A program made the position numbers and the translations under genes. A stretch of 64,000 nt of DNA from an uncultured delta proteobacterium. GTDB taxonomy: Bacteria; Desulfobacterota; Binatia; JACPRU01. Within the stretch, counting starts at the first letter, position 1; each line of letters begins with the position of its first letter. Positions 38,905 to 43,957 of this stretch are shown here, piece by piece. Location: contig CAVUWD010000012.1 of the NCBI GenBank assembly GCA_963745025.1, positions 32,001 to 96,000 of the forward strand. The letters run 5' to 3'. Below the pieces are notes generated by a model. The model searched no databases and was not told the DNA's origin. It worked only from the letters and a program-made list of their open reading frames with translations.

Positions 38905-39090
38905 CATGCCCCGCGGCGTGGATCTGGAAGAAGCGATCGAGGATCGCGTGCCGCTCCTCGGGGTCGACCCGCCCCGCCAGCTCCATCCAACTCTTTCACG
39001 TCGGCGAACCGCGCCGTCGCCTGCCTGCGTTCGCCCTCCAGGGCCGAGGTCGATTGCAGGATCTTGTCGGCGAGATGGGGCGGCGTTTCG
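38905..39090 (-). pseudogene. Decayed fragment of a class III adenylate/guanylate cyclase
   Basis: TPPHLADKILQSTSALEGERRQATARFADVK, frameshift, then MELAGRVDPEERHAILDRFFQI; matches the start of a cyclase domain (GERKQVTVLFAD). Confidence 0.65.
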
Positions 39091-39107
39091 TCGCGAAGGA
39101 GCCGCCC

Positions 39108-39155
39108 GCTGCGGACGGCGCTCCGCGCCGCTGCTGAACCGCCAGGCCGTTATAT
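39108..39155 (+). other. Degenerate attC site (central stem, L' and R' only)
   Basis: GCGGACGGCGC-TCC-GCGCCGCTGC stem, L'-like GCTGAAC, 9-nt spacer, GTTATAT; no R'' found. Confidence 0.45.
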
Positions 39156-39524
39156 AGACCAGGGCCAGGAGCATTGGATCTTCCATGGGGTGCATTCGGC
39201 GAGAACTTCACGACGGAGGGTCTCGTCGAGGGCAGTGTTCACATCGGGGACCAACTCAGGATTGGTTCTGCCGAGTTCGTGGCTACACAGCCTCGCATGC
39301 CTTGCTTCAAGCTTGGGATCCGCTTTGGCCGACCGGACATGGTGAAGCACTTCCTGCGAAGCGGTGGCCCGGGAGGGCGAAGTTACCGCTGGCGACGCTG
39401 TCACGTTGATCGCCCGGCACGACCTTGCGATTACCGTCGCTGAGATTGTTGGCTTGTACACGGCGGACGTCGTGAACCAAGAGCTTCTCCGCAAGGCGAG
39501 CGAGCTCTTCTCGGCGACGAGGAG
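39156..39524 (+). pseudogene. MOSC-domain (YiiM-like) gene remnant between attC sites
   Basis: WGAFGENFTTEG...IGDQLRIG...TQPRMPCFKL, then frame change and deletion to VAREGEVTAGD; N-terminus missing. Confidence 0.75.
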
Positions 39525-39617
39525 AATTAACCAACGGTTGGAGCAGACCGGCGCACAACCGGCTCGTCACGACCGGGCGGTTATGGGCGCCGGCCGCTCA
39601 ACCGCCGGTCGTTAGAC
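39525..39617 (+). other. Integron attC site (93 bp)
   Basis: R'' AATTAAC, 5-nt spacer, L'' GTTGGAGC (extra G relative to L'), L' GCTCAAC, 8-nt spacer, R' GTTAGAC; internal CCGGCGC/GCGCCGG stem. Confidence 0.85.
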
Positions 39618-39651
39618 CGCTCTGGGTCCCGGGTGGTAGGGTTCGGGCTCG

Positions 39652-39943
39652 GTGGCTGGGCTCATCTTCGAGTGGGATACTGCGAAGGCGGAGAGCAACT
39701 TTCGAAGGCATGGCGTCTCGTTCGTGGAGGCGGTGACCACCTTCGCCGACCCCTTGGCGGCGATCCACGACGATCCCGATCACTCAGAGCAGGAACCCCG
39801 AGAACTCATCATCGGGGCACTCAAGCGCCGACCGGCTGTTGATCGTGAGCTTTACGGAGCTACCGAACTCGGTCAGAATCATCAGCGCCCGCAAAGCGAC
39901 ACGGCGGGAACGTCGCGACTATGAAGCCAGCCGAAAAGCATAA
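39652..39943 (+). CDS. brnT: BrnT family ribonuclease toxin with +1 frameshift at GGGG 39814-39817
   Basis: FEWDTAKAESNFRRHGVSF...DPDHS...IIG; removing one G restores HSSADRLLIVSFTE...VRIISARKATRRERRDYE. Confidence 0.85.
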
Positions 39944-40169
39944 GGCAACCGACGGTCTTCGTAGGGAATACGTGTTCGACTACGCCCGGGCACGCCCCAA
40001 CCGCTTCGCCCCGCGCATGAAGGGCAGGAGCGTTGCCATCGTTTTGGACCCCGACGTCGCTTCTGTTTTTCAGAGCGCAGAGGCCGTCAACGCCCTCCTA
40101 CGTTCCGTGATCTCGGCCATGCCAAGGGGCGCTAAAGCCACCAGGCTGCCGAGGCGCAGAGCGGTCTAA
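39921..40169 (+). CDS. Cognate antitoxin (BrnA-like)
   Basis: Overlaps toxin; LRREYVFDY..ARPNRFA...VLDPDVASVF..AEAVNALLR; stop TAA lies inside GTCTAAC (R''-like). Confidence 0.8.
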   Translation: MKPAEKHKATDGLRREYVFDYARARPNRFAPRMKGRSVAIVLDPDVASVFQSAEAVNALLRSVISAMPRGAKATRLPRRRAV

Positions 40170-40179
40170 CCCCAACCTC

Positions 40180-41592
40180 CTAAGAAACAACGACAGTAGG
40201 GGTTTGTAATTGCACGAGTTGGAAGCCGAGAGAGGCGGCGCGCTTGGAGAGAGAGCGGACGGTGCGCTCGCGGAATTTGAGTTCGTAGTAATCGATGCCG
40301 AGATCTTTGTAGGGTTGGCGGTGCTTCCACATTCGGTAGAAGATGCGCGAGAGCTTGTGGGCGGTGGCGGTGATGGCCTTGGGGGGCCCGAGTCGGGCGC
40401 GCATGCGGCGATGAAAGGCACCCAGAGCGGTGTGGCTGTTGCCGGCAGACTGAGCGGCTCGGCGTAAGGCAGTGGCCACACGGTTGGAGGCTTTTCGGGT
40501 CTTGGAGCTTTTCACTTCTCCTCCGGTGACACGGTTGTCGGGGCACAGCGCAAGCCAGGAGGCGAAGTGCTTCTCGGAGGGAAACTTCGAGGGATCGAGG
40601 CCGACCTCGGAAAGGATGGTCTGCACGGTGAGGGCATCGAACCCCGTGATGGCGGTGAAGTCGACGCCTGAGATTCGATAGAGGTGGGTGCGCAGGTCGA
40701 AGCCAGCCTCGTTGCGCTGGGGCTTGCGGTGGGTGGCCTTGGGTTGTCCCAGGGGCGTGAGAGCAGGGTCGACTTGGGTGTCGAAGCCGCCCAGGCATTG
40801 CTCGATCCGCAGGTCGCAGTCGGCAATCATGCTGCGGTAGGTGTCATAGAGCGAGAGGCATTGCTCAAGTGCGAAGAGGTGCTCGGGTCGGTAGTCGCCC
40901 TGGAGGGATTGGGCGATGCGCTCGGAGGTGCTCTTGATGCGATGATCGCGCATCGCGGCCAGAAGCTGTGGATCTCGCTCACCGGCGAGGATGGAGCGAA
41001 TGATTCTCATGCCGCTGACGCCGGTGATGTCACTGATGACCTTGTGAAGCTGGATGTTCATCTGGGTCAGGGCCTTCTGCATGCGCTGCACGTGAGCGGC
41101 CGCGTCGCGGATGAGAGTATCGCGCTGGCGGATGTAGCTGCGCAGCACGCAGGTCTGATCGTCGGGACGAAACGATCCCGAGAGTAGACCAAAGGTGTGC
41201 AGCTGCTGGAGCCACTGGCAGTCCTGGATGTCGCTCTTTCTGCCGGGCAGGTTTTTGACGTGGCGGGCGTTGACGAGCTTGACCTCGAAGCCGCGCGTCT
41301 CGAGGATCTGAAAGAGCGGGATCCAGTAGACTCCGGTGGATTCCATGACCACGGTGTCGACTCCGCACTGCTCGAGCCAGTCAGCCAGACGGTGCAAATC
41401 GGCGGTGAAGCACTCGAAGCGGCGCACGGGCTGCGGATCGCGGTCCTCGGGAACCGCCACGTAGTGCTCGGCGGATCCGACATCGATGCCGGCGGCGTTG
41501 AGGTGCACAGCCTTGAGGCTCGCGGGCAACCCCGTTCCTCGCGCGACGCTCTTTCTCTTTCGGCCTGCGCCGGGTTTGATAGACTCCTTCAT
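40180..41592 (-). CDS. IS110 family transposase/recombinase
   Basis: DEDD RuvC motifs AGIDVG, VMESTG, KSDIQD; C-terminal FPSEKHFASW..L.P..RVTGG, ATAHKL; AAGGAGG before ATG 41592 (or GTG 41601). Confidence 0.95.
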   Translation of the reverse strand: MKESIKPGAGRKRKSVARGTGLPASLKAVHLNAAGIDVGSAEHYVAVPEDRDPQPVRRFECFTADLHRLADWLEQCGVDTVVMESTGVYWIPLFQILETRGFEVKLVNARHVKNLPGRKSDIQDCQWLQQLHTFGLLSGSFRPDDQTCVLRSYIRQRDTLIRDAAAHVQRMQKALTQMNIQLHKVISDITGVSGMRIIRSILAGERDPQLLAAMRDHRIKSTSERIAQSLQGDYRPEHLFALEQCLSLYDTYRSMIADCDLRIEQCLGGFDTQVDPALTPLGQPKATHRKPQRNEAGFDLRTHLYRISGVDFTAITGFDALTVQTILSEVGLDPSKFPSEKHFASWLALCPDNRVTGGEVKSSKTRKASNRVATALRRAAQSAGNSHTALGAFHRRMRARLGPPKAITATAHKLSRIFYRMWKHRQPYKDLGIDYYELKFRERTVRSLSKRAASLGFQLVQLQTPTVVVS

Positions 41593-41601
41593 CGAGTACA
41601 C

Positions 41602-41867
41602 CTCCTTGGAGTTGGGATGTGCTCGGGCCGGGTGGGTCGAAGGTGAGAAATCTCCTAAACGGGATAACCCTCCGTGCGAGGGAGGGCTTCACCAATGAAA
41701 CAACCGCAAGCCCCCCGGAACCATGCTAACCCACGGGCGCGAAGGCACCATTGGCGCTACGGTCTTAGCTACCCGAGCACATCCCGGTGTACTCGACGCA
41801 CACCGGCGCAGCAAAGACACTCAGGTTTCTTCCATCAACAACACCGCGCCTCGCGCGGGGTCAAATG
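41602..41867 (-). ncRNA. Candidate bridge/seek RNA in the IS110 non-coding end
   Basis: 14-bp perfect stem 41614-41627/41772-41785 encloses exact matches to both element junctions (41652-41658 and 41723-41731). Confidence 0.65.
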
Positions 41868-41870
41868 CTA

Positions 41871-41963
41871 ACCTAACAAGCGGTTGGAGCGGCCCGGCGC
41901 GCAACCAGCTCGTCACGGCCGGACCTCGGTGGGCGCCGGCCGCTCAACCGCGGGGCGTTAGCC
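41871..41963 (+). other. Integron attC site (93 bp), homologous to 39525-39617
   Basis: R'' ACCTAAC, spacer AAGCG, L'' GTTGGAGC, L' GCTCAAC, 8-nt spacer, R' GTTAG(CC); shared CAACC.GCTCGTCACG.CCGG central region. Confidence 0.88.
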
Positions 41964-42121
41964 GGAAGTTCCCGCGCTCTGCCAGTGTGAAGGTGGTCTG
42001 AAAGTCGCGGTGGTTATTGGTGTTTGTGCCTGTGGGAGTGAGATATTTGGGTCCTTGCTGTAGTCACTAAATCATGCTGGGCTGGCTTGACAACACACGT
42101 GTTATCCACTAATAACACGCC

Positions 42122-43859
42122 GTGGCTCGGCGAAGCGGCGCAGTTCATGTAGTAACCACAAGGCGGACCTACAAAGACAAGGTCTACGAGACCCACCTGC
42201 TGCGCCGCAGCTACCGCCAGGGCGACACGGTCAAGAACGAGACGCTCGGCAACCTCTCTCACCTCCCGGGCCATCTCATCGACCTGATTCGTCGCGCACT
42301 TCAGGGAGAGGCCGTTGCGCCGGTGACGCAGCTCTTCGAGATCACCTCTTCGGCGGCTCACGGGCATGTGGAGGCGGTTCGGGCCGCGATGGCACGACTG
42401 GAGTTCGAGCCGCTGCTCGCCTCACGTGGGTGTCGGGAGCGCGATCTGGTGTGCGCGATGGTGGCCGCTCGCATCATCGCCCCGCACACCAAGCTCGCCA
42501 CCACCCGCTGGTGGCACACCACCACCTTGGCCGAGGACCTCGCGTGTGGCCGATGCCGACGAGGACGATCTCTACGCGGCGATGGACTGGCTGCTCGAGC
42601 GTCAGGGGACGATCGAGAAGAAGCTCGCCACGCGCCATCTCGGCGAGGGGAGCCTGGTGCTGTACGACTTGAGCTCGAGCTACTTCGAGGGGACGACCTG
42701 TCCGCTGGCCAAGCTCGGGCACGATCGCGACGGCAAGAAGGGCAAGCTGCAGGTGAACTATGGGCTGCTCACCGATCGGCGCGGTTGCCCGGTGGCGGTG
42801 TCGGTCTACGACGGCAATACCAGCGACCCCAAGACCCTCATGCCGCAAGTCCACAAGCTCAAGAAGGACTTCGGCATCCAGACCCTGGTCCTGGTCGGCG
42901 ACCGAGGGATGATTTCACAGAAGGCCATCGACGAGCTCAAGGAGCAGGACCAAGTCGCCTGGATCACGGCGCTCAAGACCCGTCAGATTCGAGCGCTGGT
43001 GGAAGGCGGGCAGCTTCAGCTCGGGCTCTTCGACGAGAAGAATCTCTTCGAGCTCTCGCACCCGGACTTTCCCGCCGAGCGCCTGATCGCATGCCGCAAC
43101 CCGCAGCTAGCGAAGCTGCGCAATCACAAGCGGCAGTCTCTGCTCGATGCCACCGAGAAGGAGCTCGAGAAGGTCAGGGGCATGGTCGAGCGGGGGCGCC
43201 TTTCGGGCCGCGACGCTATCGGCGTGCGCGTGGGCAAGGTCGTCAACAAGTACAAGGTCGCCAAGCACTTCGCGCTCGACATCGAGGAGCACCGCTTCGG
43301 CTTCCATCGGCTCGAGGACGACATCGCTTCGGAAGCGGCCCTCGACGGCATCTACATCATCCGCACGAGCCTCGGGAAAAAGCAGATGACGGCCGCCGAC
43401 TGCGTGCGTAACTACAAGTCCCTGGCTCAGGTCGAGCGGGCGTTTCGATCGCTGAAGACCATCGATCTGAAGATCCGCCCCATCCACCATCACCTCGCCG
43501 ACCGCGTCAGAAGCCACATCTTCCTCTGCATGCTCGCCTACTATGTCGAGTGGCACATGCGAGAGGCCTGGCGCCCCTTGCTCTTCGCCGACGAGGATCC
43601 ACTCGCCAAGACTACCCGCGATCCGGTGGCCCCCGCCAAGCGCTCCGCGGCCGCCGAGGCCAAGGCCGCCTCTCATCTCCTCGACGACGGCACCCCCGCC
43701 CACAGCTTCTCCACCCTTCAACAGGAGCTCGCTACCATCGTCCGCAACACCTGCCGCGCCCCCCACGCCGGCGACGATGCCCCAACCTTCAAGATCACCA
43801 CCACTCCCAACCCGAAGCAGCGTCGCGCCCTCGAACTGCTCAACGCCATCCACTTGTAG
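42122..43859 (+). CDS. IS1634 family transposase, frameshifted near 42543
   Basis: THLLRRSYRQGDTVKNETLGNLS N-terminus; after the shift LYDLSSSYFEG, LVGDRGM, YKSLAQVERAFRSLK, RPIHH. Confidence 0.9.
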
Positions 43860-43871
43860 ACAGAAACTCGC

Positions 43872-43957
43872 ACACCTGATTCGGTCTATCTCCCCGAATC
43901 ATGAAAGGATTCCGACACCTGATTCGGTCTATCTCCCCGAATCATGAAAGGATTCCG
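43872..43957 (+). repeat. Perfect 43-bp tandem duplication in the IS1634 right end
   Basis: ACACCTGATTCGGTCTATCTCCCCGAATCATGAAAGGATTCCG x2; each unit contains a TGATTCGG/CCGAATCA hairpin. Confidence 0.95.

Follow-up and report, generated by a model that had tools for sequence, protein, structure and literature searches.

How does an insertion sequence come to lie between an integron gene cassette and its attC site, and is it led there by an RNA of its own? The question is raised by a 64,000-nt stretch of DNA from an uncultured delta proteobacterium (contig CAVUWD010000012.1, positions 32,001 to 96,000; below called the window), in which an earlier note had described an element of the IS110 family with a candidate bridge RNA apparently programmed to the CTAAC core of attC. 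Every sequence string of that note was found again at its position. Taken as a whole, the data are best explained by an active or recently active RNA-guided insertion sequence (IS) with a two-module bridge (seek) RNA, and we regard this explanation as likely. The upstream end of the element encodes a structured RNA, as shown by covariation, within which GGGUUAG is the long guide for the target and UUAGGAG that for the donor. That the element is programmed to attC is partly supported.

Identity and ends of the element

The transposase comprises 470 amino acids from its ATG and 473 from an upstream GTG at 41601. It matches the Pfam families PF01548 (DEDD_Tnp_IS110, residues 37–182, 5.9e-22) and PF02371 (Transposase_20, residues 316–388, 5.6e-11), with an insert of roughly 130 amino acids between these two domains, and reaches 276 bits against NCBIfam NF033542, 'IS110 family RNA-guided transposase', for which the cut-off is 140. 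This bears out the family assigned to it in the earlier note. The stop codon is located inside the terminal donor sequence, the last 8 nt of the element, and 275 nt extend from the core to the ATG. Thus, nearly all non-coding sequence lies upstream of the gene, again as had been described. We collected 79 homologous loci with 44–77% protein identity from Binatia, Wolbachia, Acidobacteriota, Dehalococcoidia, Verrucomicrobiota and others. The clade is widespread, with members in Wolbachia, in Dehalococcoidia and on an IncF plasmid of Citrobacter, and its proteins are about 450–490 amino acids long. The identity to a match on an actinomycete plasmid was 31.7% over 91%.

The genome from which the window is taken (5.65-Mb assembly, 65.9% G+C) contains four copies of the element in full length, another with an internal deletion and a fragment with which a contig begins; they are 98–100% identical to one another. 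The junction on the stop-codon side can be read in five copies, whose common identity runs from 40177 (CT) to 41872/3. Written on the + strand of the window, the five sites are caac-CT-[IS]-CT-aacct for the window copy (L001), cggc-CT-..-CT-aacac (L002), tcaa-CT-..-CT-aaccc (L003), aacg-CT-..-CT-aacct (L004) and ccat-CT-..-CT-aacaa (L005). Hence CT is present at both junctions in 5/5 copies and all five are sited at CT-AAC, in agreement with the ends and with the CTAAC target proposed before. Counted with one copy of the core, the element is 1691 bp long. The L003 site was found empty in two element-free relatives (G006 and G001), where it reads TTGTCAA-CT-AACCGG and TCAA-CT-AACCAG. The single CT in the empty site shows that the target is not duplicated. 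Metagenome contigs from four public runs break at 40177/8 and 41873, as is expected at the edges of a repeat.

Two other placements of the ends were considered and ruled out. A core CTAA (target CTC-CTAA-CC) does not agree with the empty sites, which read TCAA-CT-AACC without CTCCTAA, and the CTAAC cannot be part of the right end of the element, as in L002 it is the sole R'' box of the attC, at the correct 4-nt spacing. The element was absent from all 30 relatives searched. For the window copy no empty site was found in these 30 relatives, none of which has a close orthologue of the cassette (best match 72% over 119 nt). A scan of metagenomes with the terminal 21-mer gave two contigs that have the terminus alone in common with the element and no match to the RNA model described below. 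Copy L004 has several indels in its gene, and its flank is cut by the contig end.

In addition, the element has a sub-terminal inverted repeat of 7–9 bp. The corresponding reverse-complement match was found in the window element and in the Binatia, Wolbachia, Acidobacteriota and Dehalococcoidia elements, and the repeat covaries across elements (GTTTC/GAAAC, GTTCC/GGAAC and AGTTAGT/ACTAACT).

A conserved RNA is encoded upstream of the transposase gene

A covariance model, R1, was built from 31 aligned upstream regions of homologues. The predicted RNA has a length of about 175 nt, and at each of 53 places R1 gave a single match in the region upstream of the gene. Among 49 distinct sequences, 85.7% of 1985 cells held standard pairs compared with 68.8% after shuffling and 35–47% when the partners were slid. 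Compensatory changes were seen in 34 of the 42 pairs (7 helices), and in 500 shuffles not one of the five measures was reached, the R1 alignment being one that was fitted to the model itself. Independently of R1, RNAalifold applied to a plain MAFFT alignment yielded the four inner helices, with compensatory changes in 14/24 pairs. The minimum free energy of the RNA region corresponds to a z-score of −3.79. The pairs are rich in G-U, which indicates that the transcribed strand is the transposase strand. Rfam gave no match at E up to 1 within 39000–43000.

The perfect 14-bp stem reported in the earlier note is the closing helix (P1) of this RNA, in which 10/10 pairs show changes on both sides. 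P1 encloses two similar modules, each of which opens with CA(A/U/C)UGGUG, continues with a hairpin (UGG.GC with GCCCG-type pairs) and then shows CCCG-x-(variable 5–7 nt)-AG on the 3' strand of an internal loop. The note had seen the target-like match ahead of the donor-like match on the transposase strand, and in the conserved, covarying RNA the target module is indeed 5' of the donor module. Its inner stem CCAATG/CATTGG had to be given up: the two words are complementary in the window copy, but they are not conserved as a pair and represent two instances of the direct motif CA(A/U/C)UGGUG. In a Dehalococcoidia element the motif of the first module reads CATTGG.

Guide words follow the target site and the element end

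To compare guides with sites, we relied on five element types whose ends were fixed by comparing copies and independently of the guides. The target guide covaried with the copy-defined target in 5/5 element types tested. The words shared by guide and target are GGGTTAG for the window element, TTGTTAG (Binatia), (TCG)TTTAG (Wolbachia), CTTTCAG (Acidobacteriota) and TACAAAG (Dehalococcoidia). For the window element, the long target guide predicts the target CT-AACCC on the + strand. A copy of the junction is present inside the RNA end, as ATGCTAACC occurs at 41723–41731 and at 41865–41873. This 9-mer is found at these two places only in the 64-kb window, where 0.05 occurrences are expected, and 0/100 shuffles reached two. 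The donor guide equals the end of the element, TTAGGAG in most cases, and in the Dehalococcoidia element UUGAAAG (TTGAAAG) goes together with the end GTTGAAAG. In the window, CTCCTAA is located at 40177–40183 and 41652–41658. Two occurrences of this 7-mer in 64 kb compare with 1.7 expected and were reached by 45/100 shuffles, which is uninformative taken alone.

Across the family, 40 of 54 instances have the donor 7-mer between −40 and +150 nt relative to the stop codon, and 11 distinct words are represented; eight of the 14 misses have truncated genes. The target 6-mer was exact at the expected terminus in 37 of the 54 instances. These counts are not independent, since many instances are copies of one element. 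GGUUAG and UUAGGAG, which had been singled out in the earlier note as target-like and donor-like matches, thus correspond to the two long guides, the former covarying with the site flank and the latter with the element end. The member on the Citrobacter sp. IncF plasmid NZ_CP056547.1, which is 51% identical and has its RNA at L117:510–665 (49.8 bits), carries guide words that finish in AA rather than AG, and Anaerolineales members likewise have other endings. The core is hence not fixed across the family. NZ_CP056547.1 is a conjugative, enterobacterial plasmid.

The internal copies of the junctions might be protein-binding or inverted-repeat elements of the transposon ends instead of RNA guides. 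A sub-terminal inverted repeat that covaries does exist in these elements. The matches, however, occupy single-stranded loop positions in a scaffold of compensatory helices with strand-specific G-U pairs, they are direct and not inverted relative to flank and end, and the internal words change with the target where the element ends stay constant. Moreover, the literature shows this protein family to be RNA-guided, as the name of NF033542 also states. We regard a purely protein-binding role as very improbable.

A second, shorter target guide is probably GCGCC at 41757–41753. The bases immediately 5' of CA(A/U/C)UGG were compared with the flank in 40 site/guide pairs of 25 guide types, and they complement its positions 1, 2 and 3 in 24, 20 and 17 cases. 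The summed score of 61 compares with a permuted mean of 32.7, and none of 5000 permutations was as high. The optimum site deduced from both guides is GCGC-CT-AACCC on the + strand of the window. The second guide suggested in the earlier note, GUGCCU (41748–41743), lies in the near-invariant UGGUGC/GCCCG stem. The preferred target GTGC-CT-AACC given there contains GCCTAAC, and so does the optimum deduced here. The block 5' of the second CAUUGG motif was tried as a donor guide and rejected, as it fits the Binatia element only. Directly after the long target guide stands a CAU that agrees with the start of the non-coding-end terminus, but it is near-invariant. A mutual-information table was not used as evidence, since its flanks were located with guide words, which is partly circular, and relatedness makes it noisy.

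Some members of the family have other members as their targets. In L063 (2228–2534, 439–743), the target guide of one element, AGAGAAG, is the donor end of a co-resident relative, and the element is inserted exactly there. The target guide at L070:3657–3818 reads UUAGGAG, like the common donor end, and at L021:2008–2294 the donor-guide DNA of a diverged relative is interrupted by the Wolbachia element.

A proposed model of RNA-guided insertion

From these data the following course of insertion may be proposed. In the target module, GCGCC on the 5' strand and GGGUUAG on the 3' strand of the internal loop would read both strands of the site around the CT core, while UUAGGAG in the donor module would read the element's own last bases. 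The RNA would be made from the element and bound by its recombinase. In a presumed circular intermediate, or another joined form, the last bases of the element would abut its other end at the same core, and recombination at the core would then insert the element without duplication. The invariant CT-AAC of the target is the core of the attC R'' box, so that insertions would fall at the attC 5' end, with the element antisense to the cassettes. The frequency with which it is found there is more than the guide match by itself explains.

Several results do not favour this model. The sites of the element in its own genome fit the short guide GCGCC at 0–2 of 4 positions. A fourth guide, directed to the non-coding-end terminus as in RNAs of the IS621 type, was not detected by exact-match or mutual-information searches. 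Neither a circle junction nor an empty-site joint across the element was seen in the contigs of the four metagenome runs, in which rare forms are dropped, and a scan of 40100–42000 in the linear form gave 0 sigma-70-like promoter sites. The hairpin and U-rich run at the start of the non-coding end (see Table 1) could block read-through from the flank into the element.

Table 1. Features of the insertion sequence and its attC surroundings in the window.
Feature	Position	Strand	Description
IS110-family insertion sequence, occupied span	40177..41869	-	Includes a CT core copy at each junction (40177-8, 41868-9)
Transposase/recombinase gene	40180..41592	-	ATG 41592-41590, AGGAGG 41606-41601, stop TAG 40182-40180
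Bridge-RNA-like non-coding RNA	41610..41789	-	Closing helix, target module, donor module; covariance model R1, 145 bits
Closing helix P1, 5' strand	41772..41785	-	Pairs with 41614-41627, perfect 14-bp complement
Closing helix P1, 3' strand	41614..41627	-	Pairs with 41772-41785
Long target guide GGGUUAG	41726..41732	-	Identical to flank and core on the non-coding-end side; followed by near-invariant CAUGG
Probable short target guide GCGCC	41753..41757	-	5' strand of target loop; complements core G and first flank bases on the transposase-stop side
Long donor guide UUAGGAG	41652..41658	-	Identical to the last 7 bases of the element, TTAGG and core AG (40177-40183 on +)
Sub-terminal inverted repeat, stop-codon side	40182..40188	AAGAAAC on +	Partner 41825-41831
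Sub-terminal inverted repeat, non-coding-end side	41825..41831	GTTTCTT on +	38 nt in from the core
GC-rich terminal hairpin, then U-rich run, terminator-like	41844..41858	-	Consensus scan; equivalent hairpin in homologues
attC-like site beside the element	41873..41963	+	R'' CTAAC 41873-41877, L''/L' arms, R' GTTAGCC 41957-41963
GTCTAAC with stop codon of upstream cassette open reading frame	40164..40170	+	Sequence
Intact upstream attC	39528..39617	+	Repeat comparison; bulged hairpin, z -4.47

The element at attC sites

The repeats beside the element belong to a true attC family. They show R''/R' boxes and an imperfect L''/L' palindrome that forms a bulged hairpin. The site adjoining the element is 83% identical to the intact upstream attC, and its bottom strand folds as such a hairpin (z −2.56). 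A search with nhmmer detected about ten of these repeats in the genome. It is very unlikely that they are palindromes of the repetitive extragenic palindrome or miniature inverted-repeat transposable element type, unrelated to integrons, and that the element is an ordinary IS110 that targets such palindromes. The repeats are scattered with at most two together, no integron integrase above the cut-off was found in this 92.65%-complete genome, and the site beside L002 is degenerate and folds poorly (z +0.42), all of which would suit that origin. It is not easily reconciled with boxes of the RYYYAAC / GTTRRRY type, with the bulged imperfect hairpins or with the toxin-antitoxin cassette between two of the copies. 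The same repeat family is also located about 750 bp from an integron integrase (470 bits, above the curated cut-off) in the relative G007 (C248) and forms arrays in the relatives G031 (C598) and G001 (C2/C27).

The element is enriched at attC-like sites. Three of the five copies (L001, L002 and L005) adjoin attC-like sequence on their CTAAC side, in one orientation and antisense to the cassette. The junction CTAAC occupies exactly the R'' position in L002 and in a further attC on a metagenome contig of run X3; L005 abuts a truncated attC, and the window copy is set off from the R'' box by 5 nt, outside it and amid repeated CTAAC-like motifs. Of the 819 occurrences of CTAAC/GTTAG in the genome, about 7–10 are at attC R'' boxes, and the probability of at least three of five copies there is about 1e-5.

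A number of observations weigh against the idea that the guides direct the element to attC. The P value is approximate, as the attCs were counted with an nhmmer family whose seeds were those adjoining the element; if only about 100 CTAAC sites were neutral, P would be 0.003–0.06. The real sites match the 11-nt optimum at 6, 6, 7, 8 and 8 positions. One perfect and 15 ten-of-eleven sites are unoccupied, most of which are not attC. Among these unoccupied sites is an attC that is near-perfect in this respect (C4:8076–8173; R'' region CCGC-CT-AACCC at C4:8081, 10/11 to the optimum). Copy L003 resides in a non-attC site, and no attC-like hairpins were found near the closest homologues with xGTTAG guides (three Binatia elements and L011). 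What stands of the earlier claim that the element is aimed at the attC R box is that all five sites read CT-AAC, that three copies and the X3 contig are at the R'' ends of attC and that the optimum holds GCCTAAC. The limited match of the real sites (6–8/11), the 16 better sites left empty and the position of L003 and of close homologues outside attC do not agree with it.

The bridge RNA could be real and its association with attC nevertheless unprogrammed. In that case the guides would specify approximately CT-AAC(C), and either insertions at attC would be harmless and survive, or attC in its folded or single-stranded form would be more accessible. The weak match to the optimum, the better sites that stay empty, the copy and the close homologues outside attC and the P value for a neutral pool of about 100 sites are all in line with this, and attC bottom strands do fold into stable hairpins. 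On the other hand, more than tolerance is suggested by an orientation that does not vary and by junctions placed exactly at R'' in L002 and the X3 contig, GCCTAAC is contained in the deduced optimum, and IS1111-attC elements reach the same place by a demonstrated guide RNA according to the passages describing them (PMC3001079, PMC11187229). We lean against an unprogrammed association, but it is a serious possibility. In our reading, the guide makes CT-AAC obligatory and favours GC-CT-AACC, which is compatible with R'' boxes and insufficient to select them. The excess at attC needs survivorship or a structural preference.

The window copy and its surroundings

As described in the earlier note, the window copy is positioned between the GTCTAAC of the cassette and the attC body, which begins past 41873. 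It is, however, not a clean insertion into a single R'' box, because six extra bases, CCCAAC, and a second CTAAC (41873–41877) are found between the two. GTCTAAC at 40164–40170 is probably the original R'' box of the cassette, now apart from the attC body; the GCGGTCTAAC of this region also opens the intact attC at C6:422528. Target-like repeats flank the window copy on both sides (40164–40176 and 41868–41877) in the arrangement GTCTAAC-CCCAAC-CT[IS]CT-AAC-CTAAC. This layout equals the element with 9 and 3 carried flanking bases placed at the CT of a normal GCGGTCTAAC-AAGC-GGTTGG attC. Similar arrays flank homologues, as GTTGTTA repeats around Binatia copies and as TCAGGAG five times before L063:447.

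The order in the window is intact attC, BrnT/BrnA-like cassette, IS110 element and second attC. The cassette (39652–40169), bracketed by the attC pair, comprises a BrnT-like toxin gene (Pfam, 5.1e-13) and an overlapping open reading frame of 82 amino acids without a family match. Just past the second attC follows an IS4-type DDE_Tnp_1 transposase gene (42366–43859; Pfam, 5.1e-15) and after this gene a perfect tandem duplication of a 43-nt unit (43872–43957).

Elsewhere in the genome, the internally deleted copy (L005/L007, contig C8:103159–104485) lacks the part that corresponds to 41287–41650 of the window, the deletion ending directly beside the donor-guide DNA. A core-to-core exchange as its origin was ruled out by a 2-nt GA microhomology at the junction. 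Contigs C20 (1–256) and C12 (115256–116960) start or finish inside copies of the element, which is hence one cause of assembly breaks.

Implications

RNA-guided recombinases of the IS110 family are under development as tools for genome writing, for which the natural variety of guide layouts is raw material. The present clade offers a covariance model and about 50 natural guide/target pairs in a compact and well aligned form. Its guide order and core orientation, which are unlike those of IS621, and its long guide of 7 nt bear on how much pairing is needed and on off-target ('half-match') recombination. For integron biology, the element would add an independent lineage, the third one, to those with insertions at the attC 5' end in antisense orientation to the cassettes. 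A third lineage suggests that, where a genome retains attC sites but no integrase, this end of the site serves generally as a safe harbour or else is a target exposed by its structure. If the attC preference were only survivorship, the finding would reduce to a well-documented new member of an IS110 subfamily. The habit of inserting at the attC 5' end in antisense orientation is already known from IS1111-attC elements; the variant with an upstream RNA appears to be new. A limited search found no attC-targeting IS110 with an upstream RNA in print, and Supplementary Table 5 and the Extended Data structures of Durrant et al. may already cover this clade.

Comparison with known systems

In IS621, a 9-nt guide identical to the flank comes first in the loop and a 4-nt complement of the top strand second, the left target guide being located at nt 50–58 and the right target guide at nt 77–80, and the core reads CT in the sense of the RNA (Durrant et al. 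2024; Hiraizumi et al. 2024). In ISEc21 the order of the guides is as in IS621, and in the seekRNAs of the IS1111 type it is reversed (Siddiquee et al. 2024). Elements of the IS110 group as a rule have a sub-terminal inverted repeat of 2–3 bp, while longer sub-terminal repeats are a hallmark of IS1111.

Like IS621, the window element encodes a DEDD recombinase with a Tnp_20 domain, and its RNA is encoded in a long upstream end, the downstream end being short. The conserved RNA structure contains two pseudo-symmetric modules with internal loops, the target module standing 5' of the donor module. The long guide is identical to the left flank and the core, and the short guide complements the core and the right flank. 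As is typical of the IS110 family, there are no terminal inverted repeats and no target duplication, and the short core (2 nt, as in IS621) occurs singly where the site is empty and on both sides of the element where it is filled. Unlike in IS621, the core reads AG on the RNA-sense strand (CT on the other). The order of the guides is the reverse of that in IS621, as the 5' strand of the loop holds the short guide, which is the top-strand complement (41757–41753), and the 3' strand the long one (41732–41726). The long guide comprises 7 nt instead of 9, a long closing helix encloses both modules, the sub-terminal repeats are 7–9 bp instead of 2–3 bp long, and the two guide searches described above found no fourth guide of the kind known from IS621-type RNAs. 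The protein of about 470 amino acids also differs in length from that of IS621. With ISEc21 the element shares the upstream non-coding region and a guide RNA with matches to both target strands, which in ISEc21 is bound by the transposase. The bottom-strand match comes first in ISEc21, whereas the order in the window element resembles that of IS1111.

The insertions of IS1111-attC elements (ISKpn4, ISPst6, ISPa21 and ISPa25) are close to the attC 5' end and antisense to the cassette array, and the non-coding region with the seekRNA is downstream of their transposase gene (PMC11187229, PMC3001079). The earlier note had drawn the same contrast, correctly according to the published passages (PMC11187229). 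Could the window element be a diverged member of this group? It shares with it the insertion at the attC 5' end in antisense orientation, seen in three of the five copies and one metagenome contig, as well as an element-encoded guide RNA, sub-terminal inverted repeats, here of 7–9 bp, and an IS1111-like order of the guides. However, its RNA lies upstream of the gene and, with the stop codon in the terminal 8 nt, there is no downstream non-coding region. The element is also found at CTAAC sites that are not attC, its protein of about 470 amino acids has the insert of roughly 130 between the domains, and the sequence relation is weak, as judged from IS4321 alone, the sole IS1111-type reference compared (23–26% identity in two segments, E 3e-6). 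Membership in the IS1111-attC group is hence most unlikely.

A more far-reaching reading, which combines four suggestions and which taken together we consider tentative and rather doubtful, is that the clade is a hybrid or intermediate between the IS110 and IS1111 groups. The upstream position of the RNA is as in IS110, and the guide order, the long sub-terminal repeats and the core of opposite sense resemble IS1111. Secondly, recognition may work by half-sites, so that in its own genome a guide of 5–7 nt together with the folded attC may do most of the recognition. Thirdly, the duplicated CTAAC around the window copy and the tandem target motifs around homologues may be footprints of recombination that carries flanking DNA along. 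Finally, the element may have arrived independently at the same safe harbour at the attC 5' end, in antisense orientation, as the IS1111-attC elements and the group IIC-attC introns. These introns, too, are inserted close to the attC 5' end and in antisense orientation to the cassettes (PMC3001079). They are likewise mobile and use RNA–DNA pairing, but they are retroelements with an unrelated mechanism and an unrelated protein.

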